DNA of 64,000 nt from Verrucomicrobiota bacterium (GTDB lineage Bacteria > Verrucomicrobiota > Verrucomicrobiia > Limisphaerales > AAA164-E04). Location: contig CP170459.1 of NCBI GenBank assembly GCA_047947115.1, forward strand, positions 1,696,001 through 1,760,000, read 5' to 3'. The position numbers were made by a program, and so were the translations under genes. Below the pieces are notes generated by a model, which worked only from the letters and a program-made list of their open reading frames with translations, had not been told where the DNA came from and did not search any database. Shown here in pieces: positions 1 through 56,220 of the stretch (the stretch's first letter is position 1; the number at the start of each line of letters is the position of its first letter).

Positions 1-2198
1 CTGAGCAGCCCAATTATGAGGTGCTGACCATTCCTAGCACGATGACGGTCATGGGTGAAGAAATGGAAGTCACTTGGGATCTGCAGCAAGACCAATACAT
101 TTATGGTGATTTGGCTTCCAAGGCACTGCTCTCTGCTGAAAGTAATGTGGAGGGCCAGTTTCTCTATCAAATAAAGAAGGTGGGGGGGCAAGTAAGTGGT
201 ATCTTGACTAGCGGCACGGTGTTGCCTGTCGGGGAACACGTGGTGACCATGACCTTCATTCCTGAAGAGAAGCCGCAAGACCTTGTAGTCATTGAGAAAA
301 CGATCACCGTTTCCAAGGCTAACCTGGTCGTGAGAGCCAATGGTTTGAACATAATTGTAGGTTCGCCTTATCAGAACCAGCTCTCAGCCAGCTATGAAGG
401 TTTTGTGTTTGAAGACGCAGAAAAAGATCTTCAGGTGAAACCACGGCTGTCTGTTCCTAACTTCGTTCAAAACCTGGCCGGCCAATATGAAATCCAGGTT
501 TCTGGTGGCAGTGATGAAAGCTATGACTTCACCTATGTTTCTGGGGTCTTGAACGTGGCCGAAAACGCTAGTTTTCCCGATATCGCTTTTGTGGAGCCAG
601 TGGTTAACCCAGTCAATGTGGCTGAGGGCAGGGGGGTCACGCTTCGGTTTCAGCTGGATGGTGTCGTTCCAACCAACGCTTCAGTCAGTGTGAGCAAGGA
701 TGGTTTGCCATTTGGTAAAACACGTATTGATGGCGACAGCATTTATCTGGATATCGATGCGGCGGTGAGATCTGATTCGGGTAACTACATCGCCAGATTA
801 GCCATTCCTCAATTCAAGGCGATTGAATCCTCGTCTCTGGAACTCAATGTGATCTACAAATCATTGCTAGGCATGGGATTGCTGAACTATCGCCAGAGCA
901 ACCAGCCCATGTTGGGTGCCCCGATTGTGAATGATGACAACTCGGTCGTGATAAGCACCAAAGATGGCACTTTCTACGGATATCAATCCAATCCAGCCAC
1001 AGGAGATATCGAGCCTGCTTGGGCCTATTCGATGGGGCAGGATATCCTCGGGAATATCCTCAAAGGTGAAGACGATAATTATTACGCACTCTCAGACAAA
1101 GGAACGCTGATTAAATTCAAGCAAGAGGCCACCTCAGGAACTCAGGTCTGGGAGTTTGACACGGACGAACAGGGATCCCTCAGCAACGGTTTCACCAACT
1201 CACCTACCATCCTCAACGATGAGATCGTTGTCTTTGGGTGGATTGATGGACACGTCTATGCCGTGAATCGGCAGACAGGTGACTTGGTATGGAAGACGGA
1301 CTTGGGTGGCATGGTCTTTACCCCTGTAGCTGTTTATGAAGACAAGATTTACACCCATACCTGGAATACTTGGTATTGTGTGTTGGATTCCAATGGTCAA
1401 ATTCTTCACAAAAATCCTATCAGCTACGGGCTTTATCGCCAACAACCTTCGGTGGATACAGATGGAACTGCCTTTCTGGGCTGCGATGATAGTTATGTTT
1501 ATGCTTTTTGGAGTAGTGGACTGTTGAAGTGGAGTTATGAGTGCGAGAATATTGTTTCCGGTGGTATCGTTGTGGGTGACCACTTCATTGCCTTCATTGA
1601 CCAGGAAGGCATTCTCTATTATCTCAAGAAGAGTACTGGTGCCGTCATTAAGAAATCTCAGTTGGCCAATACTCCAGGTTCCACATCCCATCTGACCATT
1701 GGCTATGATGGGACCATCGTGGTGGGTAGCCAGAAAGGAGGGCTTTTTGCCTTCACCGCTGATGGTCAGGTCATCTGGGAGTATCAAAGCGCCCCGACAA
1801 CCTGGGGTTCTCCATCGATCGGTCGTGATGGTAAGGTGTTTTTCGGTTCTGACGATGGCTATTTCTACGCAGTCCAGGGACATACCTCATTGGGTATGCA
1901 ATATCCCTGGTATAAGCAGGGAGCCAATCGCCTGAATACAGGCGGCCTTTGGTTGGCTACTCAGGATCCTGAATCAGGTGGGGGCTCTGGTAGCGGAGAA
2001 GGCCCAGATTTGATTGCTGGGATTGAAGGTGGGAACATCGTGATCAATGTGATCGCACATGACAAGCAGCGTGTCTACAAAGTCTACACCAGTGATGATT
2101 TGAAGTCTTGGGTCGAGGTTCCAGGGTATCGCCCCAATGTGAATGGCGAAATCAAACTTCCAGCGAATAGGCGGTCGCAATTTATCAAAGTTGAATAG
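1..2198 (+). CDS. Large secreted/surface protein, 5'-partial: MBG-like and Ig-like domains, PQQ/BamB-type beta-propeller, C-terminal SxDLxxW domain
   Basis: ORF has no signal peptide and probably starts upstream of the window. 'KANLVVRAN...YEGFVFED' is MBG-like. Repeated 'W..DLGG...TP', 'SPSIGRDGKVFFGSDDGYFYAV' propeller blades. Tail 'YKVYTSDDLKSW...QFIKVE'. Confidence 0.75.
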   Translation, partial: EQPNYEVLTIPSTMTVMGEEMEVTWDLQQDQYIYGDLASKALLSAESNVEGQFLYQIKKVGGQVSGILTSGTVLPVGEHVVTMTFIPEEKPQDLVVIEKTITVSKANLVVRANGLNIIVGSPYQNQLSASYEGFVFEDAEKDLQVKPRLSVPNFVQNLAGQYEIQVSGGSDESYDFTYVSGVLNVAENASFPDIAFVEPVVNPVNVAEGRGVTLRFQLDGVVPTNASVSVSKDGLPFGKTRIDGDSIYLDIDAAVRSDSGNYIARLAIPQFKAIESSSLELNVIYKSLLGMGLLNYRQSNQPMLGAPIVNDDNSVVISTKDGTFYGYQSNPATGDIEPAWAYSMGQDILGNILKGEDDNYYALSDKGTLIKFKQEATSGTQVWEFDTDEQGSLSNGFTNSPTILNDEIVVFGWIDGHVYAVNRQTGDLVWKTDLGGMVFTPVAVYEDKIYTHTWNTWYCVLDSNGQILHKNPISYGLYRQQPSVDTDGTAFLGCDDSYVYAFWSSGLLKWSYECENIVSGGIVVGDHFIAFIDQEGILYYLKKSTGAVIKKSQLANTPGSTSHLTIGYDGTIVVGSQKGGLFAFTADGQVIWEYQSAPTTWGSPSIGRDGKVFFGSDDGYFYAVQGHTSLGMQYPWYKQGANRLNTGGLWLATQDPESGGGSGSGEGPDLIAGIEGGNIVINVIAHDKQRVYKVYTSDDLKSWVEVPGYRPNVNGEIKLPANRRSQFIKVE

Positions 2199-2230
2199 TA
2201 AATATCTTAAGAACAAGGAAATTTAAACTA

Positions 2231-3319
2231 ATGAAAAAGTTTTTTTGCACGTTTCTCTCATTGTTTTGGGTGACTCAGGTGGCGGGTCAGACGATTAATT
2301 ACCAGGGTAGGCTTACCGACGCCGGTGGGGAGCCAGTTAATGATACTGTGAATGTATCTTTGAAGATATATGATAGTGAGACGGAAGGGGCAGTTGTTTA
2401 CACCGAGGATGTGGGCGAGATCGAAGTAGTGAGTGGACTTTATTCTTTTAATTTCGGCTTGAATGGTAAGAGTATTGCAAATTCAGTGGAATTAATTGGG
2501 ACAGGGGATGGGGAAGTAAAGGTTTTCAATTACACAACGTATCACTTACCAATCGATGCGGAAATAGAGCTTTATGATGGGTTGTTTAGTTGGTCAAATG
2601 TAGGCGGCGCTTCAGACGCAGGCCAGTTTATTGGGAGCGTCAACATTGCAGAAAAATCTGTCACAGGAATTTACATAGCTTCTCCTCCGCCACAGGGCCG
2701 GAATATATATGTGGCCTACCAATATACCCTTGATGGTATAACTGGGGCTTTGACTGACCACGATTCGTCATACTTGGAGGTTAGCATCAATAATACAAAG
2801 CTTAGGCGGGAGAAAATAGCGGATTCGCCAATTTCTGTATTTGCAAAAAATATTTTGCGAGTAAATAAAAAAAATGTTCCTATTAATATAGTTCATCAAG
2901 GAAGGTTTGTTAATAATTTCAATGGGTTCAAATATTGTGACACACCCGCTTTCTTAATCGATTTTCCGGAAGTCGATTTCAGGGAACTGGTTTTCAAAGT
3001 GCGAGGTTTATCGCTTGATGACAATGTTGGCGGAAATGGTCCGTGCCATAGCAATTATAATGGGAAGCATTCCACTTCCGATGTGAGAATTAAATTGGTT
3101 GGCAGGAACCTTGAAACATTAGAGCTTGAGGAGTTGGCCGATATTGATGTTTACAGTAATCAAACCATGCCGCTTTCTAAAGATTACAATCTTTCCGGAT
3201 TTCTCCATCTGCAGCAGACCTATATGCTGGGGGTGCAAATTAAGGCCGCTGCCAGAGGAATCGGAGGCGGTGTGACAGCGGGCTACATACGGATCCCTTG
3301 CTACTGGGAAATGAAATAG
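2231..3319 (+). CDS. Secreted hypothetical protein
   Basis: Signal peptide MKKFFCTFLSLFWVTQVAG, then 'TINYQGRLTDAGG', an N-terminal motif common in tail-fibre/collagen-like surface proteins. Visibly AT-rich. Confidence 0.65.
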   Translation: MKKFFCTFLSLFWVTQVAGQTINYQGRLTDAGGEPVNDTVNVSLKIYDSETEGAVVYTEDVGEIEVVSGLYSFNFGLNGKSIANSVELIGTGDGEVKVFNYTTYHLPIDAEIELYDGLFSWSNVGGASDAGQFIGSVNIAEKSVTGIYIASPPPQGRNIYVAYQYTLDGITGALTDHDSSYLEVSINNTKLRREKIADSPISVFAKNILRVNKKNVPINIVHQGRFVNNFNGFKYCDTPAFLIDFPEVDFRELVFKVRGLSLDDNVGGNGPCHSNYNGKHSTSDVRIKLVGRNLETLELEELADIDVYSNQTMPLSKDYNLSGFLHLQQTYMLGVQIKAAARGIGGGVTAGYIRIPCYWEMK

Positions 3320-3461
3320 ACCTAGTGTTCTTATTTTCAAACGAAAATCCTTTTTCTTCTAAGTGTCAAAAATTTATTTCTTATTTGACTTTAATAACAT
3401 CCCAGACACCCATTTACGCCGAAGAATAAAAATTATCTCGCTCCATAACTATAACCAATTC

Positions 3462-4088
3462 ATGAAAAACATCCCAAAATATTGCTCTGCTGCTATTGTA
3501 GCAGCTCTCACCATGGCAGCGTCCTCTGCGAATGCTGAGAATTCAGTCATTCTCGACTATGACTACGCCTCTGCTGGGTATTTCTACAGAGACTACGACA
3601 CTGCACTGGGTAACGTGGACGGACACGGCGCAGGCATCGAAATTTCCAAGATGTTGGCAGGAGATTTTGGGCTGAGTTTGACCTCGATGGCAGGAAGTGT
3701 CTCCGATCTGGACGCTGACATGTGGGGCATTTCGCCCACATTGTTTTACGTGGTCAAAATATCCGAAACCATGAACTTGGTGCCGAATGTTGCCTGGAAC
3801 GTTGAGCATGTAGACTACAGCTCACTCGGAATGGACAATACTACCTCTGAGGTGCAGTTTGGCTTGAGGCTCGATACGGCAGTCACCGAATCCTTTCAGT
3901 TAAGTGTTGGCACGGAGTATCGCAACGTTGTGGGTTCCGATCTCCCTCTAGACGATGACGATCGCTGGGACTTCTATCTTGGTGCTAAACTTGCACTGTC
4001 CGATCAATTAGGGCTTGGGGCTCAGATATTGACGACTACTGAGAATGTCGACTTCGGTGGGCAGATTGGCTTGGAGTGGCATTTTTAG
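3462..4088 (+). CDS. Small outer-membrane beta-barrel protein
   Basis: Start reassigned to ATG 3462 (MKNIPKYCSAAIVAALTMAASSANA signal peptide). Amphipathic strands and C-terminal 'GLEWHF' BamA-type signature. Confidence 0.75.
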   Translation: MKNIPKYCSAAIVAALTMAASSANAENSVILDYDYASAGYFYRDYDTALGNVDGHGAGIEISKMLAGDFGLSLTSMAGSVSDLDADMWGISPTLFYVVKISETMNLVPNVAWNVEHVDYSSLGMDNTTSEVQFGLRLDTAVTESFQLSVGTEYRNVVGSDLPLDDDDRWDFYLGAKLALSDQLGLGAQILTTTENVDFGGQIGLEWHF

Positions 4089-4113
4089 AAATCATCTAGC
4101 ATCTTATTATATT

Positions 4114-4152
4114 GCCTCGGGCACGCCTTTGCTGCCCGGGGCTTTTTGTTTT
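4114..4152 (+). terminator. Rho-independent terminator
   Basis: gcctcgggca...tgcccggggc stem followed by a T-tract, just after the barrel gene. Confidence 0.7.
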
Positions 4153-8682: not shown

Positions 8683-8683
8683 T

Positions 8684-11661
8684 ATGACCGATGTATTGGA
8701 TCTTTTACGAAACATTTTCGAAAGCATACTAACGACCTCCTGGCGGGCGAGCTGGATTGTTGGACTCATTCTCTCGGTTTCATGGTTGTTGCGTGATCGA
8801 ATTTCCAGTGGGTTGCGCTATGTGCTTTGGATGATGCTGTTTTTGCATATGGTATTGCCGTTTTTGTGGATCCCCTCTTCTTTCAGTTTATTCAATTGGG
8901 TGCCCAAGAGTCCTATGTATTTTGTGGGAAAAACGGTCCAGGAGCCGATTCCAAATGAGGCGCAAAGGTTGTGGGACCAGCAAAGCTCTTCCAAACGCTA
9001 CTTGGAAGCATCTGAAACATTGGCACCTGGCTTAGATTCAGATTCCCCGTCGGCATCGTCCACTCGTGATCAAACTCAAACTCCAAAAACCGAGCCATTC
9101 TCGTGGATGACTTTGATAGCAGGTGTCTGGTTCGTAGGGTGCTTGTTTTTTCTACTCCAAATGGCCTATCAGAATCGGAAGTTTTCCCGGCGAGTGCATA
9201 TGGACGGACCACTCAATGATTCATCGGTTCAAGTGATGTTGAGGAAATTGGTGGGACAGATCGGACTCGATCAAACCCCGATTTTGGTGGAGAGTGGGGC
9301 TGTATCCACGCCTGCAGTGCATAACTACCTGAAGCCTGCCATCATCCTACCTGCAGGTATGTCGAAAAGTTTGACAGAGGATCAATTGCGTCACGTATTC
9401 TTGCATGAACTGGCCCACATCAAGCGGCGGGATTTGTTGGTGCAATGGTTGGCGCATGTAATGCGAGCAGTGCACTGGTTTAATCCCTTCATATGGATTG
9501 CCGTGGCTCGCTTGCGGGTGGATTGTGAAATGGGAACGGATGCTTTGGCTCTCTGGCATGTGGGGGAAGCGCATCGTCATGCCTACGTAAAGACAATCAT
9601 TGATTTGGTTAAACGCGTCAACGCATCCAAACGAAAACCCAGATTGGTGGGGATTGTTGAAGGCAAAAAAGAGATGACGCGTCGTATTCTGAGGATTCGT
9701 AACTTTTCAATTAATCCGCAGCTTTCAAGAATCTCCATTTTTACGTTCGCAATGGTATGGATGGTTGCTTTTTCCGGTGCGGTTCGCAAACCGGAGATAA
9801 GTCGGCCACCAAAGGTAAAGTATGCTCAATTACCGACAACCAAGATATTGGGAATGCAAGGCACAGGTGGGATCGTCTGCACCATCGTGGATCCCGATGG
9901 AAATCCTGTTCCCTCAGCCCAAATTTCTTTTGGTGAAAGGGACAACTTTATTTTCCTACCGATCGGTCAAACGGATGAAAGTGGACGGATTCGGATTCCT
10001 TTCGAACGATTAAAGCCGGATATGGTGTTGGATGCTGCTGGTTTTGCCCCGACCTTGGTGGCATTTGATTATGATCCATCGCTGACTAACCGCACCTATC
10101 AACTACAAAAAGCGGCCACCGTGACAGGTAGGATCACTGATGAGAATGATGTTCCCATTTCCGAAGCAGAGGTGAAACCCATGACCTGGCATGCTTATCC
10201 TTTATTGGGTGGGGCCGGGAGGCTTGGACGCTCTATCAACACGGACAAGGATGGGCGATTTACTTGGAATCATGCTCCTCATCAAGGGGAGATCGTTTGG
10301 AGTATTCAGGCAAGCGGTTACAGATCCATTTTGAGCGATCCGATGCCTGTGGCCATGAACTGAATCTTAAAATGTCAAAACCGGACCGGGTGATTGGGAC
10401 GGTTGTGGATGCTGAAACGGGAGAACCCATCCATTCATTTCACTTTTTCATAGGTCAAACGATACGTGAAGGCGGACCTGTTTTAACAATTGATCATAAA
10501 AGCAGAGGAATCAAAGGGCTTTTCGAAATGGATGTCTTAAAGCCTGCCCGGCAGTTTCACGTGATCCAGGTTTCCGCAGATGGATATGCTCCCGCTCTTT
10601 CGCCTATCTTTCGGGATGGAGATGGGGAGCTTGAGTTTCGGTTTGAGTTGAATAAGGAAACGATCATTCCGGTCGATGTTTTTCTGCCTGACGGTAAACC
10701 TGCGTCAAATGCAACTTGGATGCAAACCCATCTTGAAAAACTGGATGTTCTACTGCCTGAACCACACGAATTTATCATGCACCATCTAAAAAGCATGTCG
10801 AGGGTTGGCGGAGCGGATAGTGATGGTCATATTGATTTCAGGACAGCTCCAGGAATCACAGGCATCATTCTGACGCACGAGCAAGGATATGCGGAAGTGA
10901 GTCTGGCGGCTCTTCAGTTATCTCCTGATATCCAATTGCGACCTTGGGGACATGTTGAAGGAAAACTCTTTTCCGGAAAGAAGCCATTGGTCGGTGAGAC
11001 AGTAGCACTCTGGCGGAATGATTATGAACTGAGCCTGGTTTCGGTCAGCACCGAAACCGGACCAGATGGAAGTTTTGCATTTCATGAGCTTCCGGCAGGA
11101 GAATACAAATTGCGAACTGAGATAGAAACCACACTTGATTGGGTGCAAGTCGAGGCTGGCAAGACTACCCATATAAATGTAGGCCAAGACGGACGTACCA
11201 TCTGTGGGCATGCCAAAGCGGATAGACGTCTTAATGACGGAGCAGACTGGAACTGGCAGATCCAGCGTTGCTATTTGAAAACAGATTCCCACATTCCCGC
11301 TGGTATCGAGGAACCCACAGAACAAGATCGCAATGACGGGGATGAAGGAATTCAACGATTCCGAGAACGCAGGAAAGCTTTTTGGGATTCACCTGAAGGC
11401 AAAGCTATTGAGCGGTCAAAGAGAAGTTATGCCGTCAAGTTCGAATACGATGGATCCTTTCGCATCGAAGGAGTGGTACCCGGTCCCTACTCACTGGAGC
11501 TTCAATTGAAGGAACGTTATCGAGAAGGGCCTAACCTGACGCATGTCGATACCATTGCCGAAGCTCGTCGAATCGTTGTTGTTCCTGGCGAAGAGGAATC
11601 CTTGCAGCATGAGGTTATAGATTTGGGAGATATTGAATTGTGGGCCGATGAAGAAAATTGA
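8684..11661 (+). pseudogene. BlaR1-like M56 metallopeptidase with carboxypeptidase-regulatory-like repeats, split by a frameshift near 10345-10363
   Basis: 8684-10363 has TM segments, the HELAH zinc motif and 'HWFNP'. 10264-11661 continues with 'GTVVDAETGEPI', 'PWGHVEGKL', 'DGSFRIEGVVPGPY' repeats in another frame. Confidence 0.8.
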
Positions 11662-17974: not shown

Positions 17975-18647
17975 GGCTGAGACAATTTACCTCAGAAGTC
18001 TGTTAGTTGCCCCACGACCCCGTTTTCACTGATTTTCGGCCAACTTTGCTCTAAAAAACCGGACCGGATACCTTGCCGAAGCGGACGCATCCAAACGGAT
18101 ATGCATCGAAGTCACACCACTTCGGAATTGCCGATACGTCGACCAAGGTCCTGCAGAAGTGGGGGCTGATTCCAATACAATTCCTCTTGGAACAAGGGAC
18201 CAATGGAATTCAAGAAAATCACCCGAGCGTTTTACTGGAGCATGATTTTCCCTGGTCCTTTTGGATTGACCCCAAAACTCACTAATTTACGAGGCAATCG
18301 GGGCTTGTTCTGCGGCTATAGTCAGTCACAAGGGTCTGGAAATCCGAGTTGGGCAATCAGCAATGGAAACCCTCATAGACTGAATCGGCGGCGATGGATG
18401 TACAAACGATTTTCTGGACCTGCGAATGCAGGAAGGGCTCAGGATAAGTTGGTTGAAGATCGAACAATCCCAGAGTCTAAAACCAGATGTGTGACTGGAT
18501 CAGACAAGCAATACGAAAATCAAGAAAGCGGCGAGCCTTGATAATCTGGGGGACATCCGGACAAATATAAACAAAGTAAAAAAAGTCGAAAAAAACGACT
18601 TGGGGTTGATATTTGTCTCTTGACCGAAAACTCTAATGTGTGACCTC

Positions 18648-31386: not shown

Positions 31387-34300
31387 GTGGTGGAAGGAAT
31401 GAGTTTGAAGATGGTGGCTGGCGTTTCGGGGCATGTGTCGGGGTTGGAAAGGGCGGCGGTTGCGGACGCTACACTGTCGATTTATCCCTATGTCGAAGAT
31501 ATCAAGAATGGGGGCCATGCGCCTTTCAGTAGTCAGGACACATTCAAAGATGGATTCTACGCATTCTATAACCTTCCTCCGGGTTCATACATACTGGCTC
31601 TCAGAAATCGTCAGCATGAATCGGATCGAATCACCTGGTCCGAATATTTTGAAATCAAACCCAATGTGGATATCGAAGTGGATTTCGCCGAGCGTGATCC
31701 TTGGTTGGGGCATTGGACTCACTACAGTGGTCGGGATGGTCTCGCGAGCATGGCCAATCAATCCTTGTTTCAGGATAGCAAGGGATACCTGTGGATCGGG
31801 TCCGGTAGCCAGGGGGTGCCCGGCAACGGGGTTTCAAGATATGACGGCAAACAGTTCGAAGTGTTTACGGTGGACACCCCGTCGGTGAACGAAAAGATCA
31901 CCAGCATTGCCGAAACCCGGGACGGCACGCTTTGGTTTGCGTCAAAAAGCGGTTTGTTTCGGCTGGGTGAGACTCAGCTGATTTCTGTTGTTTTGCAGGG
32001 TGCATTTTCCGACGCGAGTATGGAAGCGCTCCAGGCGGACGAAGAGATTCTTTGGGTGGGGACGGACAAAGGGCTGGTAAAAATACATCAGGGAACACAG
32101 CGGTTTTTTACGATGGACCATGGACTTCCGCACAACAAGGTTTTGGATTTGGCATTGGACTCCGACCGGCGTTTGTGGATTGGAACACAAAAGGGAGCCG
32201 CCTACTTTGAAGGTGGACAATTGAATTCTTTTGGAGAGCATGGCGGATTGGGCGGGGTGACGGTCACGGCTGTTCACATTTCAAATGATCAGGTGAAATG
32301 GTTTGGGACGAACAAGGGAGTGACACGTGTTGATGAACACACGGTGGAGCATTTCGGGGTTCGGGAGGGGATTTTGTCGCCAAGGGTGTACGATATTACG
32401 TCTGATTCGGCAGGTAACATTTGGATCGCCACCTATGGGAATGCTTATCGGATTCGTCAAGGGCACGTAGAAGGACTGCATTCCAGTGCGGCTCAAAAAA
32501 TGACTCAAGGGGTTGAGGCGATTCTGGTGGACAACAATCATACTGTGTGGTTCGCCACCGGCATCGGTGGCGTTCATCGGTATCAAGAGGACATCAAATC
32601 CATCGGCAAGCTGAAGGGGATGCATGATCAATTTATATCCAACACCTATCTGGATAAAGACAATCGACTTTGGGTGGGAGGCATCAGCGGACTGGTAAGC
32701 ATGTCCGGTTTGTTGGAAGATCCCCCCGCTCTTTCATCGTCCGCTTCAGAACGTTCACATATGGTGATCAGAAAGTACTCTGCCGCGGAAGGAGTTCCGG
32801 GTAAATACATCAGTGTGATCGAGCCGGATGATGAGGGTGGGCTCTGGATTGCATCAGGTGGCATTTTTTCGAATTCAGAGGGCCTTTCAAGATATGATGG
32901 GAGGCAATTCAAGCGTTTTACCACAAGGAACGGTCTTCCTAACAATAGAGTCCACACTATTCGTGCTTCCACTTCCGGCTTTCGATGGATTGCCACTCAG
33001 GAAGGTTTATTGCCCCTGACATCTGAATTGACCATTCCGGAAGTTTCGTTGCCGTTACATCTTTTCTCAGAATTTCTAGAAAAGCATTCCGCCAGTCCGA
33101 CGACTTATGATGTCCTGCAAGATACGGAGCATTCGTTATGGATCGCCACCCTGAACTCCGGGTTCGTGCGTGTGGATGGGGATCAAATCACTCGGTTTAC
33201 CATCAAGGATGGTCTGCCTTCGGACAATATCATGCGGATGGCGCAAGACCGACATGGACGGATATGGTTCGCCACTTTGAACGGGATGGCTGTATACGAC
33301 AATGGACAGATCAGATCTTTCGTTGGAGGGGCCGATCGATTTCCGGTGCATCGGTTTGAAGATGTCATTTGCGATTCAAACGGGACGGTCTGGTTCGCCT
33401 CATGGGGGAGCGGGGTGTTTGGTTTCGACGGGGATGCCTGGACACGATTGGACGAAAGCGATGGTATTGCGAACAACCGTGTTTTTGCCATCAACGAGGA
33501 TCATGAGGGTAGGTTGCACATATGCACCGCATCCGGATTGAGCACTTATCGGCGATCGGCTTCAAAGCCCAGTGTCATTCTCCGATCGCTCCAGACAGAC
33601 AGAGGTGAAGCTGTTGATGGAAAGCTTCCCGACATCCAGACCGCCTCACGTGTGACGCTCAAGTTCGGGAGCGTTGATTTCAAGACGCATCCGGATAAAC
33701 GTCAGTATCGCATTCGTATTTCAGAACCGGGACAGGACAGTGATTGGGGCAACCCTCAACATTTGGATACCTTTGAGTGGATTCCGGAACATCCTGGACC
33801 AGTCACCATCGAAGCGCAGGCCATTGACCGGGATCTGAATTATAGCGATCCCCTCAGTCTGACCATGAACGTGTTTGTTCCCTGGTATCGGAATGTCTGG
33901 GTGATTGGCCCTTTCCTTGCGGGCTTTTTGATCGTGTCGGGTTCGGCGTTTTCCTATGGGTGGCGGTATTACATGAATCGGCGTAATTCCAGAAAGCTGG
34001 AGCGTCAAACGCACCGCCTCAAAGAGAAGATGCTGCAGGAACAACAGCGTCAGAACAAGGCCTTGAGCGAGGCAAAGGAAGAGGCCGAACGCGCCAACAA
34101 GGCCAAGACCATCTTTCTGGCCAACATGAGTCATGAAATCCGCACGCCGATGAACGCTATTCTCGGTTACGCCCAGATTCTGTTGAGAGATCGTGGCTTG
34201 TCTGCCAAACAACATGGAGCGGTGCAAACAATGGCGGACAGCGGTAAACATCTGCTCAGACTGATCAATGACATCCTGGATCTTTCCAAGATCGAAGCGG

Positions 34301-35508
34301 ATCACGTCAAAGTGGAGTCTGCTGATTTTGATTTGAGATCCACAGTGGAGGGACTTTCAGCCATGTTTCGACCAAGATGTCAGTCGAAAGGTTTGGTCTG
34401 AAAAGTGAACTGGTGTTCTAATTCGGATCAACGCATGAACGGACCGATTCCCTTGTCGGGGGATGAGTCCAAACTGCGTCAGGTTTTAATCAACCTGGTA
34501 TCCAACGCCATCAAGTTCACCGATCATGGAAGTGTTGAACTAACCATCAGTCGGGCATCCGAAAATATGGATCCGAACATGGTAGGTTACCAGTTCAGTG
34601 TGAAGGACACAGGCTGCGGTATTTCCAACGCAGATCAATCATCCATCCTGACTCCTTTTCAACAAGGAACCAATGCGGCAGCGGTTGGAGGAACGGGGTT
34701 AGGGTTGGCGATAGTCCAACGTCATGTTGAATTGATGGGAGGTCGATTGACTTTTGAATCGGTGAAAGGCCAGGGATCACGTTTTGAGTTCAGCCTGGCC
34801 TTCTCCGCAGCCCAGACCGATACAAGTTTCTTTCGCAAGACGAACGAATTGTCGCCGGTTCCGATGCGATCGGAGAAATCCTTCAGGGCGTTGATCATTG
34901 ATGATGTTGCCGAGAACCGTGAAGTGTTGAGCCGGATTTTGAGCGACATGGGGGCGGAGGTTTCCACCGCTGAAAACGGGTTAATGGGGCTGGAGTTTCT
35001 GGAGACGGAATCGTTCGACGTTGTCTTTTTGGATATTCGCATGCCGGGTATGGACGGGTTTCAGGTGATCGATGAAATCAGGAGCCGACCCGAACCTGTC
35101 TCCCGATTGAAAACCATTGCCATTTCCGCTTCCACATTCAGCCATGACGAAGCCGCCTATCAGGAATCAGGATTTGATGCATTTATCTCCAAGCACTTTC
35201 TGATCGAAGATCTGATGACTTGCTTGAAGGCGCAATTGAATTTGAAGTTCATAGCGATCAGCGGACCAGATGAAAACCAATGGAGCGAAAGCCATCCACT
35301 TCCCGAGTTGCCAGACACCTTGTTGAGTGAACTCGGTGAAGCTGCTGAAACATATCAAACCACTGAACTCAAGGAACTACTTGAGGAAGTGCGAAAAGTA
35401 GGTCCCGAGGCCGCAGCATTTGCTGATTACCTCAATGAGCTGGCAGGCAACTTTAACATGAAACAATTTGTCACCATTTTGAAACGACACGACCATGAAT
35501 CCAACTGA
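31387..35508 (+). pseudogene. Hybrid sensor histidine kinase (propeller + Y_Y_Y-like + TM + HisKA + HATPase + REC) with in-frame TGA at 34399-34401
   Basis: Reg_prop repeats ('[10 protein letters not shown]', 'GLPSDNI'), '[18 protein letters not shown]', then GLV*KVNW in frame with 'LRQVLINLVSNAIKFT', 'GGTGLGL', 'LDIRMPGMDG'. No signal peptide, so probably also 5'-truncated. Confidence 0.88.
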
Positions 35509-43171: not shown

Positions 43172-44486
43172 ATGAAACATCAAACAACCGTTGATGGATG
43201 CGTACGCGTATCCTGGAAGGTGTACCTGCTGTGTACGCTGCTCGCACTTCAGGCAAACATTATGACCGCCCAGGGCAATCGGCCCGCGCAGGCAGGTCGG
43301 AATCAAATAGAAATCACCAGTGCTGAACCCGATCTGGATGCTGATACACTTCTTATCACAGGTCGGCACTTGGGCAGCATTTTTAACGGAAGCGTCCAGT
43401 TGTATCTCGCGGAAGATGGATTTATCTGTAATTGATTTCAGCCCGTTAACCCAACAGATCCTCGTTGAACTTCCCGACGGCTTGGAAGCTTACGCCGGAT
43501 CTCATTTGCTCATTGTGCATTCCGGGAACGGAGCCAATGGAATGGATGCATTCAATATCACGTTCGGAACTGTTGGCCCTTCCGGACCTCTGGGACCTCA
43601 AGGCGAACCCGGTCCGAAGGGGGACAAAGGAGATACAGGTGATCAAGGACCAAAAGGAGACACGGGAGACGCTGGTCCACAGGGTGATCAGGGTGATCAG
43701 GGACCGCAAGGCGAGGTAGGCCCGAAGGGGGATGCTGGAGATACCGGACCGACTGGCCCGAAGGGGGACAAAGGTGACAAGGGAGATCAAGGAGAGAAGG
43801 GCGACACCGGCGACAAAGGTGAAAAAGGCGATCCGGGGGATCAAGGCCCCAAAGGAGATCCTGGAGCAACAGGCCCTCAGGGCATTCAAGGGATTCAAGG
43901 GATTCAAGGGATTCAAGGTCCGAAGGGTGATAAGGGAGATCAAGGTGATCCAGGAACACCAGGTGCGGGCGTGCCCTTAACGAGCACACCTGGAAACATT
44001 CTTCGTTCGGATGGAGTGCAGTGGGTGGAAGTTCCATTTCCCACGACTTCCACTGGCAACACAGGTGGTAATCAGCCCTTCAGTGTGCGCGACCCATCTC
44101 TAGCGGTGAACTATATCATTGCTCTTCAGGGGCTATTTCCTTCCCGATCGAGTGCCGATCCCTTCATAGGCGAAATCATCATGTTCGGAGGTAATTTTGC
44201 ACCTCGGGGTTGGGCTTTTTGCGATGGACAATTACTTCCTATCTCAAGCTACAGCGCCTTGTTCTCCATATTGGGTACCACTTTTGGAGGAGATGGTCGT
44301 ACAACCTTTGCTCTCCCGGATTTGAGGGGACGCGCAGCGATACACGAAGGTTCTGGTCCTGGATTGTCGAGCGTTTCATTGGGGCAAAGAATCGGGAGTT
44401 TGGATGCCACATTGAATGTCAATCATTTGCCCGCACACAATCACTCACTCAATGTTGATGATGCCCCGGTTCCGGCTACTCCATAA
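43172..44486 (+). pseudogene. Collagen triple-helix + phage tail-collar domain protein, frameshifted near 43420-43435
   Basis: Signal peptide and IPT-like start (43172-43435), then a long G-X-Y run and '[27 protein letters not shown]...FALPDLRGR' in another frame. Confidence 0.8.
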
Positions 44487-46668: not shown

Positions 46669-48723
46669 TTACTCCTGTGATATGAGTTGGAAGAATGTGG
46701 TTTCGGTAACTTGAATCGTTACGCTGGATGTCCCGTCGACGGTAGTCGGTTCTGTCGGGAAAGGGCTCCATGCGCCGGAGTTCAAATCCGACGTTGATTC
46801 GAGTTGGAAGTCTGCCGAATCCCCCGGCCATTGAATGGTGATTTCACCTGCTTCAGTGCGGCTGATTGCCAAAGCAGGTGTATTGTCCATGGGTTTGCAC
46901 TCTTCCAAAGGATTGATCCCCGCAAATGGTCCGCAAGGTCGGATCACGCCGTATTGGATGCGTGTGAAGTAGATCTTGTCGGTGAATACGAAGCGCGCTG
47001 CCGCCTGCGGGCCTTGGTTGACTCCGTTGAATTTCAGATTAGGGATTTCAAAATAGGCCTCCCGCCAGGTCCCGGTTCCTTCAAGCGTTGCGACTCTGTC
47101 TCCGGGAGTGAATCCGAAGGTGGTCAGTCCTCCAAGTTCCGTTTGGTAAACTTCGGGGCGAAAGGTGGCGCCGGTCAATTCCGGATCGTCATAATAGGTG
47201 ACGCAGATAGAAATGTGCGCATTGGGTTGGCTGGTCGGGCCGAACACTTCATCCTGAATGGCAAAGTTCATGTAGATATGGGGGAATCCGGGTGTGCCGT
47301 CATCCATGGCGGGGCGAACCGCTAGGCGCCGATCTCCGTCAGGTCCTGCTTCTTCCGTGATCATTTCCTGGTCGCCGCCATTGTTGCCCGCACCGAGGCC
47401 GTTCTGGATCTCGTTGTGCAGATCGTATTCAGCAAAGTTTCCGTAGAGGTCGGTGCAGATGGCGGGGTCTTCGAAACAATCGGTGAGGGGATCCTGTCCT
47501 GCCAAAGGATGTTCGCCGTCTCTGAGAATGGCCATATCCACGCGTGAGACGTAGAGACCGGTAGTTTCAAACATCAGGCGTGGTCCACCTGTCAGGTTGC
47601 CTGTGTTGACGCCTTTCAGATTCACGTCTGGAATGCGGAACGCGATCTTGCGCCATTCGCCGGATCCCTGGGTGACCCAAAGCTTGTTGGCCGGGAATAT
47701 ATCGATTCCCCCCTGTGCATCGGTAGCAAACGCTTCGGGACCGAATGAAATGCCGGTGAGTTCCGGATCATCATAATACTCGACGCATACCTTCACAACG
47801 ACCGGATCATTACAGGCTTTGCCTAGGTATTCTTCAGTGATGCCGAAATTCATATACATGCCATCGACGGTGGCCGCGCGGCGCCTGTCACCGGCCGGTC
47901 CGACGTTGGTGGCGATGCTCACATTCTGATCTCCGTTGTCGAGTAACTCCAGGTGATCGGCTGTTTCATTGGCCAGGTCGATCCATACATGGTTGGTTTC
48001 GGGTGGAGGTTCGCAAAAATCCTTGTCTAGAAACTGGTTGATTTCCTCCGGTTCGCCAAAGGCTCCCTCTTCGCCGAACGCCACCACACGCACGGTCAAT
48101 CCTGGAACGCCTTGAAATCGGATGGTGCCTCCGTTCACGCCACCGGCGCTGATGTTGCCTTGTGCATTGTCTGCGGGCTGATCAACGTAGCTGCCGCCAT
48201 CGGGGCGTATACCGTTTTCAATGCGGAACAATCCCCAATTCCACTTCCCATTGTTGGCTTCGACGGGGAGGGTGCCGCCTGTCACATTGTTCAGATTGCC
48301 GTCCGGCCCGTCAGGGAGGGTGCCGGTGAGGAAATCAAAATTGCGCGGGGTGCCGTCCGCCGCCAAGATTGAATCGTCGCCATAGAACTGGATCAGGATA
48401 TCAATGACGGGCTTATCGGCCCAGTCGAAATAAAAGGCGTCGGCGATGTTGAGGTAGTTTCCCAAAACCCGCGTGCCGCGTGCTCCGCCGATGACAACGC
48501 TGCGTGTTGCCTGGTCTCCGCCACTCAGTACGGTCAGATCTCCTTCAAACCAATTGTTGCCGAGTGGTTCATAGATCGCGTCCGGATCAGTGACGACGTA
48601 ATGCACTTCTTTTGAAGCGTCGGCAGTGGCCGGCCAATCGTCCGGAGAAAAGGGGCCTTGCTGGGCCAGGGTTCCGGTGATGCCGAGTGCAAGTAGAAGT
48701 GAGGCAACTGAAGTCTGTTTCAT
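46669..48723 (-). CDS. Secreted protein with three repeated beta-sandwich modules and C-terminal SxDLxxW domain
   Basis: Signal peptide; repeats 'YMNF.I.....CVEYYDDPELTG...G.G.WR...F.IP'; tail 'FQLESTSDLNSGAW...TFFQL'. Confidence 0.75.
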   Translation of the reverse strand: MKQTSVASLLLALGITGTLAQQGPFSPDDWPATADASKEVHYVVTDPDAIYEPLGNNWFEGDLTVLSGGDQATRSVVIGGARGTRVLGNYLNIADAFYFDWADKPVIDILIQFYGDDSILAADGTPRNFDFLTGTLPDGPDGNLNNVTGGTLPVEANNGKWNWGLFRIENGIRPDGGSYVDQPADNAQGNISAGGVNGGTIRFQGVPGLTVRVVAFGEEGAFGEPEEINQFLDKDFCEPPPETNHVWIDLANETADHLELLDNGDQNVSIATNVGPAGDRRRAATVDGMYMNFGITEEYLGKACNDPVVVKVCVEYYDDPELTGISFGPEAFATDAQGGIDIFPANKLWVTQGSGEWRKIAFRIPDVNLKGVNTGNLTGGPRLMFETTGLYVSRVDMAILRDGEHPLAGQDPLTDCFEDPAICTDLYGNFAEYDLHNEIQNGLGAGNNGGDQEMITEEAGPDGDRRLAVRPAMDDGTPGFPHIYMNFAIQDEVFGPTSQPNAHISICVTYYDDPELTGATFRPEVYQTELGGLTTFGFTPGDRVATLEGTGTWREAYFEIPNLKFNGVNQGPQAAARFVFTDKIYFTRIQYGVIRPCGPFAGINPLEECKPMDNTPALAISRTEAGEITIQWPGDSADFQLESTSDLNSGAWSPFPTEPTTVDGTSSVTIQVTETTFFQLISQE

Positions 48724-48793: not shown

Positions 48794-50665
48794 TTGAATT
48801 CAAGCTTTGGCCGGACTAAAAGTAAAGACATTAACACGTCCAGGTTCATTGGGAATTCCATCAACGCGAATGCATGCTTGTTCGCGGTTGTCTGGTTTGC
48901 GTGTGTGGCGATGGTTCGATCGGCAGAACCTGAGAACGTCCGTTTCAATGAAGCTCCCGGTGAATTTGTTAACTTTCCGAAAGAGCCAATCGACGACTTG
49001 GCATCCTGGACGACTCATGATCGGGTGATCATGACGCCCTACTTCTACTGGTATGATGTCTGGACCCAAGCGCATCTGCTGAATCCCGACCACTCAGACG
49101 CTCTCACAACACATCCGGCCACCTTGACAGGATTTTCCTATAAATCGGTTCAGTGGCATAAATCGCAACTGCTCGATATGGAAGCTGCCGGCATTGACGT
49201 TGTGCTGCCGGTTTACTGGGGTGATCCATCTCAATTGGCGGAAATTGGACCTTCCCACTGGAGCTATGCCGGGATACCTCCCTTGGTTGTCGCACGCGAA
49301 GAGCTGTTGAATGAGGGGAAATCACCTCCGCTCATCGGCATGTTTTATGACACCACCACACTGGAGCATAACGTCTGGAACGAGAAGATCGACCTGACCA
49401 CTCCTCGTGGGAGGGCTTGGTATTACGAATCCATCCGTGATTACTTTTCATACGTGCCTTCCAAGCACTGGGCCATGATCGATCATCAGCCGATCATCTT
49501 CACCTGGGTGTCCAGTTGGGCAAAAGCATACGATCAGTCTCATGTCACCGAATCCAAAAGAAGATTTGCTGAAGATTTCGGTGGGAGACCTTTCTACCTC
49601 GTTAAAGAGATTTCTTGGAATATCGAGTCGGATGATGTCTACGCATGGGGCGGGGCTTTTGGTTTGAGGCCGCTCAGTGTGGCGTCCCTCGGTCCCGGGT
49701 ATGACCATTCCAATGTGCCGGGACGGGATCCGGTTATCATTGATCGTGAGGATGGAGCTTTTTTCGAACGGAACTGGATCCGATTGCTTCGTTCCGGATT
49801 CAATCGCGTCATGATTGAAACGTGGAATGAATACCATGAGGGTACGGATATCTCGCATTCACTGGAATACGGTCGTCAATACATTGATCTCAACCGGCAG
49901 TACGCAGACCTTTTCAAAGAGAGATTTGTTCCGCCTCCCGTGGATGGGCCGTACGCCGAGTCAACGAAGGTTGATCTTGATTTTGCACATCCTAAAAATC
50001 CGGAAGCCATTCAATGGCTGGATTGGAGCGATGGTCCATCAGAACTGGTCTGGAACGACGGTGAAGCCTGCCGCAGATTCAAATCGGATTCTGATGACGT
50101 TTCCTACCTCTACTTTCGCGTGCATGATTCATTTCGGTGGGCAGGAACGCTGAATTTGAAACTACGTGTCACAGCGGAAGTTGATCGGAATGCCGCGTTG
50201 GACGTTCAGTTTGATGGATCCGATGCGATGGCGCCGTTCATGGGGGCGTATACTTCGGCACCGGTGGCCCTCAAGATCAGGGTGGCGCCTGATGTGTTGA
50301 CCTATGAATTTGATCTCAAGGACGCGCGTTTTTTGAATTCACAAAATGGCGGGGCCGACTTCAGGCTTCAAAAACTGAGGGGAAGTATTTGCATTCGATC
50401 TCTGGAGTTAATAAAGCCATTGGAAAACGGTAACAATGTCAGCCTTGGGCCTGGAATATCGATCGAATCCATTTCAGATACAAGCTTGTCGATAAAGGTG
50501 CAGGGCGTGTCTGGAACAAGATATGTTGTCGAATCTTCGCGAAACCTCAACGAATGGAGCCCTCTGTCCTCTTTGTTGATTGAGGACAATCGGGCAGTTG
50601 GCGAATTGAGCGTTCCAATCCGCTGGTCCATGCAATATTTCCGAGTGCGTCCCGCGTACCAGTAG
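48794..50665 (+). CDS. Secreted GH99-like (DUF5010-type) glycoside hydrolase with accessory module and C-terminal SxxLxxW domain
   Basis: 'PYFYWYD', 'AGIDVVLPVYWG', 'GMFYDT', 'GPGYD', 'IETWNEYHEGTDI'; tail 'YVVESSRNLNEW...QYFRVR'. Confidence 0.75.
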   Translation: MNSSFGRTKSKDINTSRFIGNSINANACLFAVVWFACVAMVRSAEPENVRFNEAPGEFVNFPKEPIDDLASWTTHDRVIMTPYFYWYDVWTQAHLLNPDHSDALTTHPATLTGFSYKSVQWHKSQLLDMEAAGIDVVLPVYWGDPSQLAEIGPSHWSYAGIPPLVVAREELLNEGKSPPLIGMFYDTTTLEHNVWNEKIDLTTPRGRAWYYESIRDYFSYVPSKHWAMIDHQPIIFTWVSSWAKAYDQSHVTESKRRFAEDFGGRPFYLVKEISWNIESDDVYAWGGAFGLRPLSVASLGPGYDHSNVPGRDPVIIDREDGAFFERNWIRLLRSGFNRVMIETWNEYHEGTDISHSLEYGRQYIDLNRQYADLFKERFVPPPVDGPYAESTKVDLDFAHPKNPEAIQWLDWSDGPSELVWNDGEACRRFKSDSDDVSYLYFRVHDSFRWAGTLNLKLRVTAEVDRNAALDVQFDGSDAMAPFMGAYTSAPVALKIRVAPDVLTYEFDLKDARFLNSQNGGADFRLQKLRGSICIRSLELIKPLENGNNVSLGPGISIESISDTSLSIKVQGVSGTRYVVESSRNLNEWSPLSSLLIEDNRAVGELSVPIRWSMQYFRVRPAYQ

Positions 50666-52563: not shown

Positions 52564-52616
52564 AACGAATCACATAGCCCAGCGTCTGCTTTCGCAAAAA
52601 AGCAGTCATAAAAGTT

Positions 52617-52664
52617 GATCCGATCTACCCGGGGAGTCGCCTGACCCTGTGGGTGGATCGGATC
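52617..52664. other. Intergenic hairpin
   Basis: gatccgatctaccc...gggtggatcggatc near-perfect 14-bp stem after the cotH gene. Confidence 0.5.
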
Positions 52665-52938
52665 GGTTGCATGAACTCTTGACAAGGCCATCCTCAAAAT
52701 CTTTCAGCTACTTGCTTTGCAACATGACGGATGGCGTTGTTTCGCTTTTGCCTCTGGTGTTCCTTTTGTTGAGGCTCACTTGTTGGGTAAAGTGCTTGGG
52801 ATCCTGTGTGTTTTTCGGATGTTGTTGAAGTAGTTTACGTTGATGAAGTGGATGATGCCGAGGACCAGCATGACCACGGCTAGTTTTGTGGCAGCATATT
52901 CGATGCCTTCGGTTATGTTGCTCCAGGGTTATAGGTAG

Positions 52939-53523
52939 CTGGTTGATCTGAGGGTTCACGGCCTTCAACTTGCTCAAATTGGACTGCCGACCGATTTGCA
53001 TCGATTAGAACAACTCAGCTTGTTCAGTGAGAGAATAACGGAACTTAAATTGCAGGAAGGGCAAATTTCTCTAAAGCATTTTTCCTTTTATGGTGGTAAT
53101 CTCCGAGATATCACTCTTTCCAGTGATATGGTCCAGTCGCACGAACTGGAATTGACGCGTAACCGCATCGAAACGCTTGTCATACCGGAAGGTGTTGGAA
53201 TCAATACGGAGTTCCCCCCCAACGTTTTCTTGTGGGAAAATCCGATCCGGTCAGTCAAGGCTCCTGCTCAGCGGAGCAATGGAATCAATGCCAATCGAGC
53301 TTTTTTTCGAGCTGGCCGAACAGTTTTTGATCGATCAGGGAATTTTCAATTCCTTGTTTCGGGGCAGTTTGGGCCCGTTATCATAGAGAAATCTCTGGAC
53401 ATGAAAACTTGGAAAGAAGTAGGGCATTTTCAAATAACGAATCCGGGCGGCGTGCAACGCTTTCGGGAATCGAATGCTTTTGCTGATCGCAATGGGTTTT
53501 ATCGGGTGAGAATAATGCAGTGA
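52939..53523 (+). pseudogene. 5'-truncated leucine-rich-repeat protein with C-terminal SxD[LM]xxW domain
   Basis: Frame opens after a TAG with LVDLRVHGLQLAQIGLPTDLHRLEQLSL...LELTRNRIETLVIPEG (LRR pattern). Tail 'IIEKSLDMKTW...GFYRVR'. No signal peptide. Confidence 0.65.
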
Positions 53524-53532
53524 CAAAGGAAG

Positions 53533-56220
53533 ATGACAATGAAATTACAGAATACATTAATGGTGTTGCTTCTTGGGTGGGGGCTAATTCAACCGAAAGC
53601 GCAATCTGCCACATCCCAACTCTCGGTGCGACGAACGCCATCAGGCCAGGGAATAAAGCTTCATTTGGCTGATCCCGAAGCGTTTGTTCAGACTGGCGTT
53701 TGGCTTGAGTTGGAGCGTAGTACGGACCTTGTTCATTGGGAAGAATTATTGGCGGCTCCTTCCTGGGCCTTTTTGGAGGAGGGGGAGGCATTATTTGAAG
53801 AGGCGGGAGGGCAAATGGCCTTCTTTCGCCTCCGGATCAACCACAAGGTCACCGCAACCTCCTCTTCCGGTGAGGAAATTTTTGGGTTTGCGTCAAGCTT
53901 TGCAAAGGAGTTGGAGAAAGTCGGACAGTTGAGTGTTGAGGAATTTCTGGAAAGTTATAGTGATGCGGATGATCGCTTGGGTGCCATTGATTTCAATCCT
54001 GAGGAATCTGAGTTTTGGGATGAATTTAATGCGGTCCCTACGAAGCGAATGCCACCCGGCAAGGACAACGACCAGGAGCGGCGTTTGCTGGATTTTCGTT
54101 TGAACGACGTGGAATTGGCTTTGTTCAAAAGGAACGGGATGGTGGTCAGCGGTCGATTGGGGGCGCACAGCTTTGTGGACGCTTATTATGGAATCTTTAC
54201 CGAAGATTTACCGGTGTTCGTGACGGCGGATTCCATCATGCATGCCTGGCATATCTCCTATGTCGAAATGCTCAAGGAATTGGAGAATGGTTTTCTCGCC
54301 CCAAAATTAAGTGACTTTCTCAATGCCTTGCATGCTGCTCTGCCCGGAGTGGCTGCGGAGATTGATTCAGATATTCTGGGGGATAGTTTGCATGATGTGG
54401 ATTATTACCTGACGGTTGCACGCAGTTTGTTTGCCGGCTCGTTGCAGGATGATCGACTTGGGGCATCCGGAGCTAAGGCCAAACAAACTTTGGATGACAT
54501 AAAAAAAGGTTTTGTTGGACCTTATGATTTGTTCGGTCGTCAGGGAAATAATGCATGGGTGGATTTTTCCCAAATGACGGTAAGAGGTCATTATGCTTCT
54601 TCCGCAGCTTTGAGCCACTATTTTCAAGCCGCCATGTGGTGCGGTCGGATTGATTTTCGTGTTGCCGGTCCGGAGGAATTTTCCTCGCCCCGCGAGTTGG
54701 GAGCCGCCATCATTTTGAACGAATTGGTCAAACGGACCGAAACGCTCCAGCAGTGGAAGGATTTTGACGACCTTTTGAAGGTGTTCGTCGGTGTCAGTGA
54801 CTCGATGGGATTTGATCAATTGGGATTGTTGCTCGCATCAGCAGGCATTCAGGATCCGATGCAAATTGGTTCAATGGATGTGCTGAAGTCGGTGCAGGAC
54901 ACAATTCAAGCTGGGGACTTTGGGTTTCAGCAGATACTGTCACATCCTTTCGTGGCGAAACCCGGAGGAGCCTCGTTGGTACTCCCAAGGTCTTTTACCG
55001 TCTTTGGTCAAAAGTTCGTGATGGACAGCTGGGCCATGAGCCAACTCGTCTTTGATAAAGTGACCTGGGATGAAAGAAAACTTCCACGACGCCTTCCGAG
55101 TGCCCTGGACGTGGCATTCACGGTTTTCGGAAACAGGAATGCCGCTGATTTGTTGGCGGAACGTATCTTGCGAGAGGAAGGCGTGCCGTTTCGGGATGGA
55201 TACCCCATCCAGCATCACCTGAGTTCTCTGCATGAGGTGTTCCATCAAATGCCTGACGCTTCTTGGCAGGAAAGTTTCTATACAGGATGGCTGAAAGCTT
55301 TGAGAGAATTATCTTCAGGAACTGGATCCGATTCTGGTTACATTCCGCAAGCCTTCCGGACGAAGGCATGGGGAAATCGTGTGATGAATACCCAGTTGGC
55401 TTCCTGGACGGAATTACGTCACGACACGGTTCTCTATGCCAAGCAATCTTCCTCACCGCCTCTGTTGTGCAGCTTTCCCTACAGTTATGTGGAGCCAAGG
55501 CCACGCTTCTGGAAAGTGATGAAGGCATTGTGTGGTTCGGCTGCGCAGAAACTGAACGAAGTCGATGCATCAGGCAGAGTTCAGATTGCAACTCAATGGG
55601 GTGGATTTGAATGGAAGAGCGTTCGTGAAATCGTTGAGAAACAAATGAATCATCTGAAAAAGTTTGAATCAACCATGCAAGCTTTGCTCGATATTGCCGA
55701 TAAACAGGATGCTCAGGAAGATTTGTCCGATGATGAAATCAGTTTTTTGAAAAACATGGTTGAAATTATTTCCGATTACGTCGGACAACGCACCTATAGC
55801 GGATGGTATCCCAAGTTGTTTTATCCTTCCGAGGGCAATTCCTGGGGCGGAACATTACCCACCGGTCATGCTTCCGATGCATGGGATCCGGTTGTGACTG
55901 ATGTTCACACTGATTTCCCTGACCAGATTCACGGAGATCCGGGCACCGTCCTGCTGGAAGGAGTTGGTAATGTCGCGATGATGTTGGTCGCGATTGATTG
56001 TGAAGACGGGGAATCCAGAGTCTATGCCGGTCCCACCTACACGCATTATGAATTCACGTCGGGCGCAGGTAAATTCGATCGCATGACTGACGAACAATGG
56101 AAACAAAAAGTTAAGGCCAACGATCTGCCGCCCCAGCCCGAATGGACTGAGGACTTCTTTGTCCCGGGAGAATTACGTCTTCCCTCTTGGGCCACTGAGG
56201 CGGATCCTTTTCCGTTTTGA
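53533..56220 (+). CDS. DUF3160 domain secreted protein
   Basis: 'PVFVTADSIMHAWH', 'DFSQMTVRGHY', 'FGQKFVMDS', 'NTQLASWTELRHDTVLYAKQ', 'YVEP', 'RMTDEQW'. Confidence 0.88.
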   Translation: MTMKLQNTLMVLLLGWGLIQPKAQSATSQLSVRRTPSGQGIKLHLADPEAFVQTGVWLELERSTDLVHWEELLAAPSWAFLEEGEALFEEAGGQMAFFRLRINHKVTATSSSGEEIFGFASSFAKELEKVGQLSVEEFLESYSDADDRLGAIDFNPEESEFWDEFNAVPTKRMPPGKDNDQERRLLDFRLNDVELALFKRNGMVVSGRLGAHSFVDAYYGIFTEDLPVFVTADSIMHAWHISYVEMLKELENGFLAPKLSDFLNALHAALPGVAAEIDSDILGDSLHDVDYYLTVARSLFAGSLQDDRLGASGAKAKQTLDDIKKGFVGPYDLFGRQGNNAWVDFSQMTVRGHYASSAALSHYFQAAMWCGRIDFRVAGPEEFSSPRELGAAIILNELVKRTETLQQWKDFDDLLKVFVGVSDSMGFDQLGLLLASAGIQDPMQIGSMDVLKSVQDTIQAGDFGFQQILSHPFVAKPGGASLVLPRSFTVFGQKFVMDSWAMSQLVFDKVTWDERKLPRRLPSALDVAFTVFGNRNAADLLAERILREEGVPFRDGYPIQHHLSSLHEVFHQMPDASWQESFYTGWLKALRELSSGTGSDSGYIPQAFRTKAWGNRVMNTQLASWTELRHDTVLYAKQSSSPPLLCSFPYSYVEPRPRFWKVMKALCGSAAQKLNEVDASGRVQIATQWGGFEWKSVREIVEKQMNHLKKFESTMQALLDIADKQDAQEDLSDDEISFLKNMVEIISDYVGQRTYSGWYPKLFYPSEGNSWGGTLPTGHASDAWDPVVTDVHTDFPDQIHGDPGTVLLEGVGNVAMMLVAIDCEDGESRVYAGPTYTHYEFTSGAGKFDRMTDEQWKQKVKANDLPPQPEWTEDFFVPGELRLPSWATEADPFPF

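Follow-up and report, generated by a model that had tools for sequence, protein, structure and literature searches.

A preliminary description of a 64,000-nucleotide stretch of Verrucomicrobiota DNA (the window) proposed that five unrelated exported proteins share a terminal domain. This locus therefore raises two questions: whether such a domain exists as a family, and, if so, whether it directs export of its passengers or holds them at the cell surface, and by what machinery. The window lies within a 6.08-Mb single-contig genome with 51% GC (the source genome, G000).

Copies of the domain in the window

All five motifs quoted in the preliminary description were found in the ORFs and frames to which it had assigned them. 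The domain copies and the genes that carry them are as follows.

2010..2195, + strand: C-terminal domain copy of a 1971-aa exported LamG/Big_9/TSP3/MBG/propeller protein, with the gene start lying before the window
18035..18235, − strand: decayed sixth domain copy in an 86-codon open stretch with no called gene
46672..46893, − strand: C-terminal domain copy of a 684-aa exported protein (46669-48723) with no Pfam family
50435..50659, + strand: C-terminal domain copy of a DUF5010/GH99-like protein (48794-50665)
53290..53520, + strand: domain copy at the end of an LRR remnant (52939-53523) with no signal peptide
53599..53847, + strand: N-terminal domain copy directly behind the signal peptide of a DUF3160 protein (53533-56220)
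61971..64000 (leaves the window), + strand: LTD/CotH gene that ends in a seventh domain copy, just outside the window at about 65740-65890 in window numbering

An HMM was built from 56 domain copies found elsewhere in the genome, with no window copy among them. With this independent model, four of the five segments scored E 6.5e-10 to 2.9e-5, and the match to the N-terminal copy of the DUF3160 protein was weak (E 0.25); models that contain window sequences gave E 4.4e-8 to 8.7e-5 for that copy. The best reversed decoys scored E 0.5-3.7. The five segments thus belong to one alignable family. The decayed copy scored E 0.0048, 0.024 and 1.6 with models b4, c3 and A5, respectively.

Several details of the preliminary description required adjustment. 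The shared domain, given there as ~50-70 aa, is ~70-75 aa long and includes two further strands that precede the quoted motif. ORF 1..2198 does end in the motif, but it is the tail of the 1971-aa gene, which starts upstream of the window with a signal peptide. Four of the five carriers, rather than all five, have a signal peptide because ORF 52939+ is a 5′-deleted gene remnant, as judged from an 887-aa ORF in a relative (G001) whose last ~199 aa are a 42% match to it. The same relative has the N-terminal arrangement of the DUF3160 protein, at 75% identity, and Pfam confirmed that the passengers are unrelated.

Several other genes of the window were recorded. A fibre-like gene (2231-3319; weakly similar to Bdello_MAT_N, at 28 bits where the cut-off is 60) directly follows the first domain gene, and a paralogue of it precedes that gene. 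A collagen and tail-collar gene lies at 43320-44486. A hybrid sensor kinase (31387-35508) is apparently split by an in-frame stop between its HisKA part (the end of 31387-34401) and its HATPase-receiver part (34405-35508). At 8684-11661 the gene for a BlaR1-type M56 protein overlaps the next ORF, which encodes further carboxypeptidase-regulatory repeats; the two are possibly one frameshifted gene.

A large family without a catalogue entry

In the source genome, 131 of 4526 self-called genes carry the domain, with 140 copies in all (E<0.02; best reversed decoy 0.51). This number of carriers is a lower bound, as more genes end in similar, unscored tails; among them are large exported proteins, such as those at 2754111-2758868 and 2628432-2636267, whose ends show a longer form of the motif, one that escapes the HMM. 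An iterated search of raw ORFs gave 53 copies at E<1e-3. The domain was present in 30 of 31 close genomes, in 45 of 91 genomes of the class and in 99 of 201 genomes of the phylum, where some single weak matches may be F5/8 hairpins. It also matched 53,922 protein cluster representatives (50% identity); the ten top representatives were all named simply ‘hypothetical protein’.

None of five domain segments matched NCBIfam at a threshold of E 5, and 61 members searched against Pfam gave weak F5/8 and DUF3999 matches alone among the 25 families listed. We found no Pfam, NCBIfam or PDB family for the domain, and no description of it in open-licence papers, the literature covered by our search; supplements and subscription journals lay outside it. 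The domain family is real and uncatalogued, and its reading as a lineage-specific terminal sorting or docking module is supported in part.

Predicted fold and conserved residues

An AlphaFold2 model of the copy from the DUF5010/GH99-like protein had six strands and a pLDDT of 89.9. Structure searches with this model returned FN3 and Ig sandwiches, with a best Z of 8.1-8.2. The FN3 matches were middling in Z (6.5-7.5, rmsd 2.4-3) and included Tencon (Z 7.3) and the PelI Fn3 domain (Z 6.9), which align from strand A to strand F. Because the alignment with FN3 scaffolds covers residues ~1-78 of their ~90, the domain appears to lack strand G, and since tandem copies abut with almost no linker, the six strands would be a complete unit. 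The domain is thus predicted to be a ~70-aa six-stranded FN3-like sandwich with no strand G, that is, a folded module rather than a linear motif. It resembles FN3 (PF00041 clan) in this alignment but differs in its six strands and in having no fn3 HMM match; Pfam fn3 was not among the families listed for the 61 members.

The conserved residues are a G, a Y, a W (98%), an F and an R (92%), and the mean column identity of the alignment is 20%. The SxDxxxW turn resembles a short Asp-box hairpin. F5/8 type C (CBM32-like) models matched the hairpin region alone, in 9 of 61 members (best E 1.7e-4), and PDB 2rv9 (F5/8) matched across positions 8-60 of the domain (E 4e-5). A full ~130-aa F5/8 (CBM32) jelly roll was rejected in view of the hairpin-only match and a TM-score of 0.40-0.44. 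T9SS CTD structures were not among the fold matches listed, and PorU (6za2, Z 7.0) was one of many Ig folds.

Position and passengers

The domain was C-terminal in 116 of the 131 carriers, directly behind the signal peptide in 10 and internal in 5. Most C-terminal carriers have a tail of 2-9 residues past the conserved Arg. One copy per carrier is usual, tandem arrays contain up to 12, and some small carriers are signal peptide plus domain and little else. The earlier argument that an N-terminal copy speaks against a cleaved C-terminal tag therefore holds, given these 10 carriers and the tandem arrays.

A signal-peptide heuristic, weak and prone to undercounting because of start-codon errors, was positive for 72 of 131 carriers as compared with 1233 of 4395 other genes. 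Scanning 54 of 60 fetched genes identified passengers with S8, C11, C25 and M10 peptidase, glycosidase and lipase domains, as well as Calx-beta, cadherin, Ig, LamG, LTD/CotH and LRR domains. Two multiheme cytochromes carry the domain, and cytochromes of this type must first fold in the periplasm. When proteins were sorted into classes by motif and BLAST, the domain was present on 3/3 S8 proteases, 4/5 Calx-beta and 8/14 LTD-type proteins, and absent from all 37 sulfatases, 22 PQQ-type propellers and 19 CRTAC1-like proteins; among the 47 proteins with a length of at least 1500 aa, 20 had it. We infer from this pattern a location beyond the outer membrane. The C25 protein scored 82 bits against a PorU cut-off of 420, and its own end is a weak domain copy.

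A generic FN3-like cap or spacer, spread by domain shuffling with no sorting role, would account for the ordinary FN3/Ig fold matches (Z 6-8), the five internal copies and long tandem arrays, and the many Ig-rich carriers. We consider this improbable: 126 of 131 carriers have the domain at an end, strand G is always missing, and the domain replaces PEP-CTERM or other terminal modules on homologues.

Comparison with known terminal tags

In Bacteroidota, the T9SS CTD is a beta-sandwich of ~70 aa that closes dozens to hundreds of unrelated exported proteins at their extreme end. The Verrucomicrobiota domain resembles this CTD (Por_Secre_tail, PF18962/TIGR04183) in size, beta-sandwich fold, passenger types and the few residues past the last strand. 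However, it has no sequence match to PF18962 (among the Pfam families listed), TIGR04183 or type B models, and it occurs at N-termini and in tandem, which is impossible for a cleaved CTD. PorV was not found in any of the five genomes searched, with a positive Bacteroides control; SprA had no match in five genomes, in a search in which no control matched either. The absence of a model match and of PorV, together with the 10 N-terminal and 5 internal cases among 131, led us to reject a T9SS CTD.

Like PEP-CTERM/exosortase tags (PF07589), the domain is a terminal module, occurs in the same genomes and is interchangeable with them on trypsin paralogues. In contrast to PEP-CTERM, its alignment contains no PEP motif, transmembrane helix or basic tail, and this identity was likewise rejected. 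About 4 PEP-CTERM genes were identified by pattern in the source genome as compared with ~130 domain genes.

Linkage to secretin operons

The source genome has about 8 secretin genes, 2 of which run directly into domain genes, and a pilB/pilT/pilC-pilin-Verru_Chthon cluster that runs into an S8 protease with 8 tandem domain copies. The operon of the Amuc_1098-type secretin contains, in order, a pilM-like gene, an Amuc_1100-like gene, a gene in the PilP position, the secretin, three genes for conserved exported proteins and, in many cases, an S8 protease gene. Orthologues of one gene lie directly downstream of this secretin in 78 of 80 Limisphaerales-type loci, which represent one inherited operon. 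This gene ends in the domain in 59 of 70 complete ORFs, and a second gene of the operon (the ‘third gene’) does so in 35 of 52 complete orthologues. The corresponding upstream count of 0/52 is not a neutral control because pilM/O/P genes occupy that space.

In the source genome, the three post-secretin exported proteins (L267:6257-12516; G000:C1:5789254-5795420) are a propeller-FN3-TSP3-domain protein, a 441-aa protein and a 941-aa beta-rich protein, with no Pfam or NCBIfam family beyond TSP3; a surface cap or tip complex is possible. Separately, 25 of the 80 loci (L203, L204, L209, L218, L223, L225, L227, L231, L233, L238, L244, L251, L253, L254 and L256-L266) have the Amuc_1098-type secretin in two ORFs, with the break at much the same place. 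In the three that were inspected (L251, L256 and L258), the C-terminal part was found to have a start of its own, together with a signal-like peptide. A GspD of the source genome (2365138-2367833) is likewise in two genes. A two-chain secretin would be unusual.

The PilP-position product has an N-terminal hydrophobic or membrane segment and a large inserted beta domain. A wide structure search pointed to a predicted PilP/GspC-HR fold, with matches at Z 7.8 (rmsd 2.8 over 72 residues) and Z 7.5 (rmsd 2.1 over 64 residues); Foldseek on this protein gave nothing clear. Its GspC/PilP-like fold and membrane anchor would be a T2SS-like trait. The whole operon is homologous to Akkermansia Amuc_1098-1101 (NF042912, NF038287, NF045709), with scores below the equivalog cut-offs. 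It differs in that those genomes of genus g20 that contain copies over the cut-offs have few or no domain copies. No outer-membrane protein of Akkermansia is more abundant than Amuc_1098, whose only described role is that of a pilus secretin (PMC4960237).

A genome of another class that was fetched whole (G119) has 22 domain genes (E<0.02), 19 of them with the domain within 14 residues of the C-terminus. Four of its five secretin loci directly precede a domain gene (base rate 1.3%), although two of the four are mutual duplicates and one was scored via 61% identity to a scored paralogue. In another genome (G111), two weakly scoring domain-like genes follow a secretin with one gene between; this intervening gene (L184:12356-14293) encodes a dephospho-CoA kinase fused to Rho. 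Prepilin genes are also linked to the domain. In the source genome, 15 of 93 prepilin-like genes flank domain genes against 5.1 expected, and prepilin genes adjoin domain genes more often than other exported genes (13 of 116 as compared with 31 of 685, p 0.007). Proximity to domain genes is also seen for CRTAC1-like genes that lack the domain (13 of 25 within two genes, 2.7 expected), so that some adjacency reflects variable islands.

The linkage did not extend to all lineages. Among the matches listed for 10 genomes of other families, the domain was located within 10 kb downstream of the Amuc_1098-type secretin in 1 and upstream of it in 1. Linkage in these genomes is at chance level, which counts against an export role for the domain. 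One domain-negative candidate (G026) was rejected as a negative control, as a contig end cuts its orthologous operon gene where the domain would start. The preliminary description had suggested phylogenetic profiling as a route to the machinery. Although the carriers do have a secretin machine, the Amuc_1098-type secretin is near-universal (178 of 201 genomes of the phylum against 99 of 201 for the domain), and therefore co-occurrence does not discriminate. Of the 20 genomes listed as lacking this secretin, only 3 are domain-positive. Other secretins also occur in domain-negative genomes. On gene order, the basis of this link, the machinery behind the domain is most likely a secretin-based system.

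Exchange with other end modules

Tandem trypsin paralogues in G119 differ in their ends, one having PEP-CTERM and the other TSP3 plus the domain. In six secretin operons, a different ~300-aa module occupies the usual end position of the domain. It was found in 14 of 91 genomes, all 14 of which also match the domain; a role as substitute in domain-negative genomes was therefore rejected. This module (the C-termini of L190, L193, L194, L201, L212 and L220) is Gly-rich and beta, ends near GxGFF, closes exported proteins, has no Pfam match and is a candidate third end tag.

A third module was present in 3 of 91 genomes, which are kin rather than independent, with 23-46 matches each and the domain in none of the three. 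In a domain-negative genome (G075) it lies 3 bp behind a secretin. It is ~135 aa long, usually doubled, ends in ALVE(V/I)Y, has no Pfam match (L283:6599-7411, L284:13770-14588) and closes many exported proteins, making it a candidate second end tag. The swaps say that the domain fills a sorting slot, and both export and anchoring fit them.

Search for a dedicated translocon

The source genome and G119 were intersected in a search for a dedicated translocon. This screen recovered only secretins and generic outer-membrane proteins from 73 filtered exported candidates, about 25 of which were scanned with Pfam; because it relied on crude gene and signal-peptide calls and BLAST, it could miss a divergent component. 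An exosortase was present upstream of the secretin operon in only 11 of 46 loci.

A dedicated translocon or sortase of another kind, parallel but not homologous to the T9SS, would explain the T9SS-like distribution and passenger set, and the ~300-aa module that co-occurs with the domain in 14 of 14 genomes recalls type A and type B CTDs. We regard such a system as quite improbable, as no unexplained outer-membrane or protease family common to the two genomes stood out in this screen and the N-terminal copies are incompatible with cleavage and attachment.

Export tag or surface anchor

Our preferred explanation, which we hold at a little short of an even chance, is that the domain is a folded tag, flexible in position, for export through a secretin machine of the T2SS/type IV pilus type. 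It draws on the family itself, the predicted fold, the terminal position, the passenger bias, the absence of PorV and the secretin linkage in two classes. The passenger would be exported by Sec and would then fold in the periplasm, where a secretin-based machine would recognize the terminal domain. Recognition may involve the conserved W/E/R face or the open F-strand edge of the domain, and the recognizing component may be the Amuc_1098-type secretin, its membrane-anchored GspC/PilP-like partner or minor pilins. The passenger would be extruded across the outer membrane with no obligatory cleavage.

Two precedents are instructive. Loops of the PelI/Pel3 Fn3 domains act as T2SS signals and bind GspC and GspD (PMC7949064). 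PelI recognition is protein-specific and multisite, whereas the present domain is one family on ~130 substrates; moreover, the match to PelI Fn3 is no higher than that to other FN3 folds, which counts against the export reading. TcpF is exported by the toxin-coregulated type IV pilus via a portable terminal signal (PMC10120004), as we propose for the domain and a pilus secretin. The TcpF signal is a short disordered N-terminal peptide that is cleaved and serves a single substrate (PMC10120004), in contrast to a folded domain on many proteins. It is also possible that the domain genes of the secretin operon encode components of the pilus itself and not typical cargo.

Alternatively, the domain may be a non-covalent surface anchor or docking module, as are SLH, dockerin and cell-wall-binding modules, that holds on to LPS, capsule or a scaffold (possibly the secretin operon products) after export by other signals. 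An anchor would function at either end and in near-linkerless tandem arrays, and arrays of up to 12 copies fit avidity-based binding equally well. The exchange with PEP-CTERM, itself an anchor, the small proteins of hardly more than signal peptide and domain, and the conserved W, Y and R with an SxDxxxW hairpin weakly like F5/8 (CBM32-like) also favor this alternative. We nevertheless judge it unlikely, though it is the main competitor. The intersection of the two genomes yielded no scaffold or partner family, most proteins have a single copy, surface conservation is low at the column identity given above, and the stand-alone secretin paralogues beside domain genes would be unexplained. The proposal of a lineage-specific secretion or surface-attachment tag thus stands as regards position, passenger class and swaps.

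Implications

How the T2SS and secreting type IV pili choose folded substrates that share no sequence signal is stated to be an open question (PMC7949064, PMC10120004). A single small domain on ~130 substrates would make this selection directly testable, and in open-licence papers we found no description of a general export label of this kind for pilus-type secretin machines. With 53,922 clusters at 50% identity, the domain deserves a curated family. Whether export tag or anchor, it marks likely surface enzymes, adhesins and cytochromes of Verrucomicrobiota that are abundant in marine, soil and freshwater habitats. More tentatively than the export role itself, a secretin/pilus machine may have become a general route of secretion in Verrucomicrobiota, with a standard, portable G-less FN3 tag that is recognized on either end of the cargo, can be exchanged for other end modules and serves more than 100 substrates per genome. 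If this is true, the domain would be to the T2SS what the CTD is to the T9SS, and sequence could reveal the surface proteome for half a phylum.
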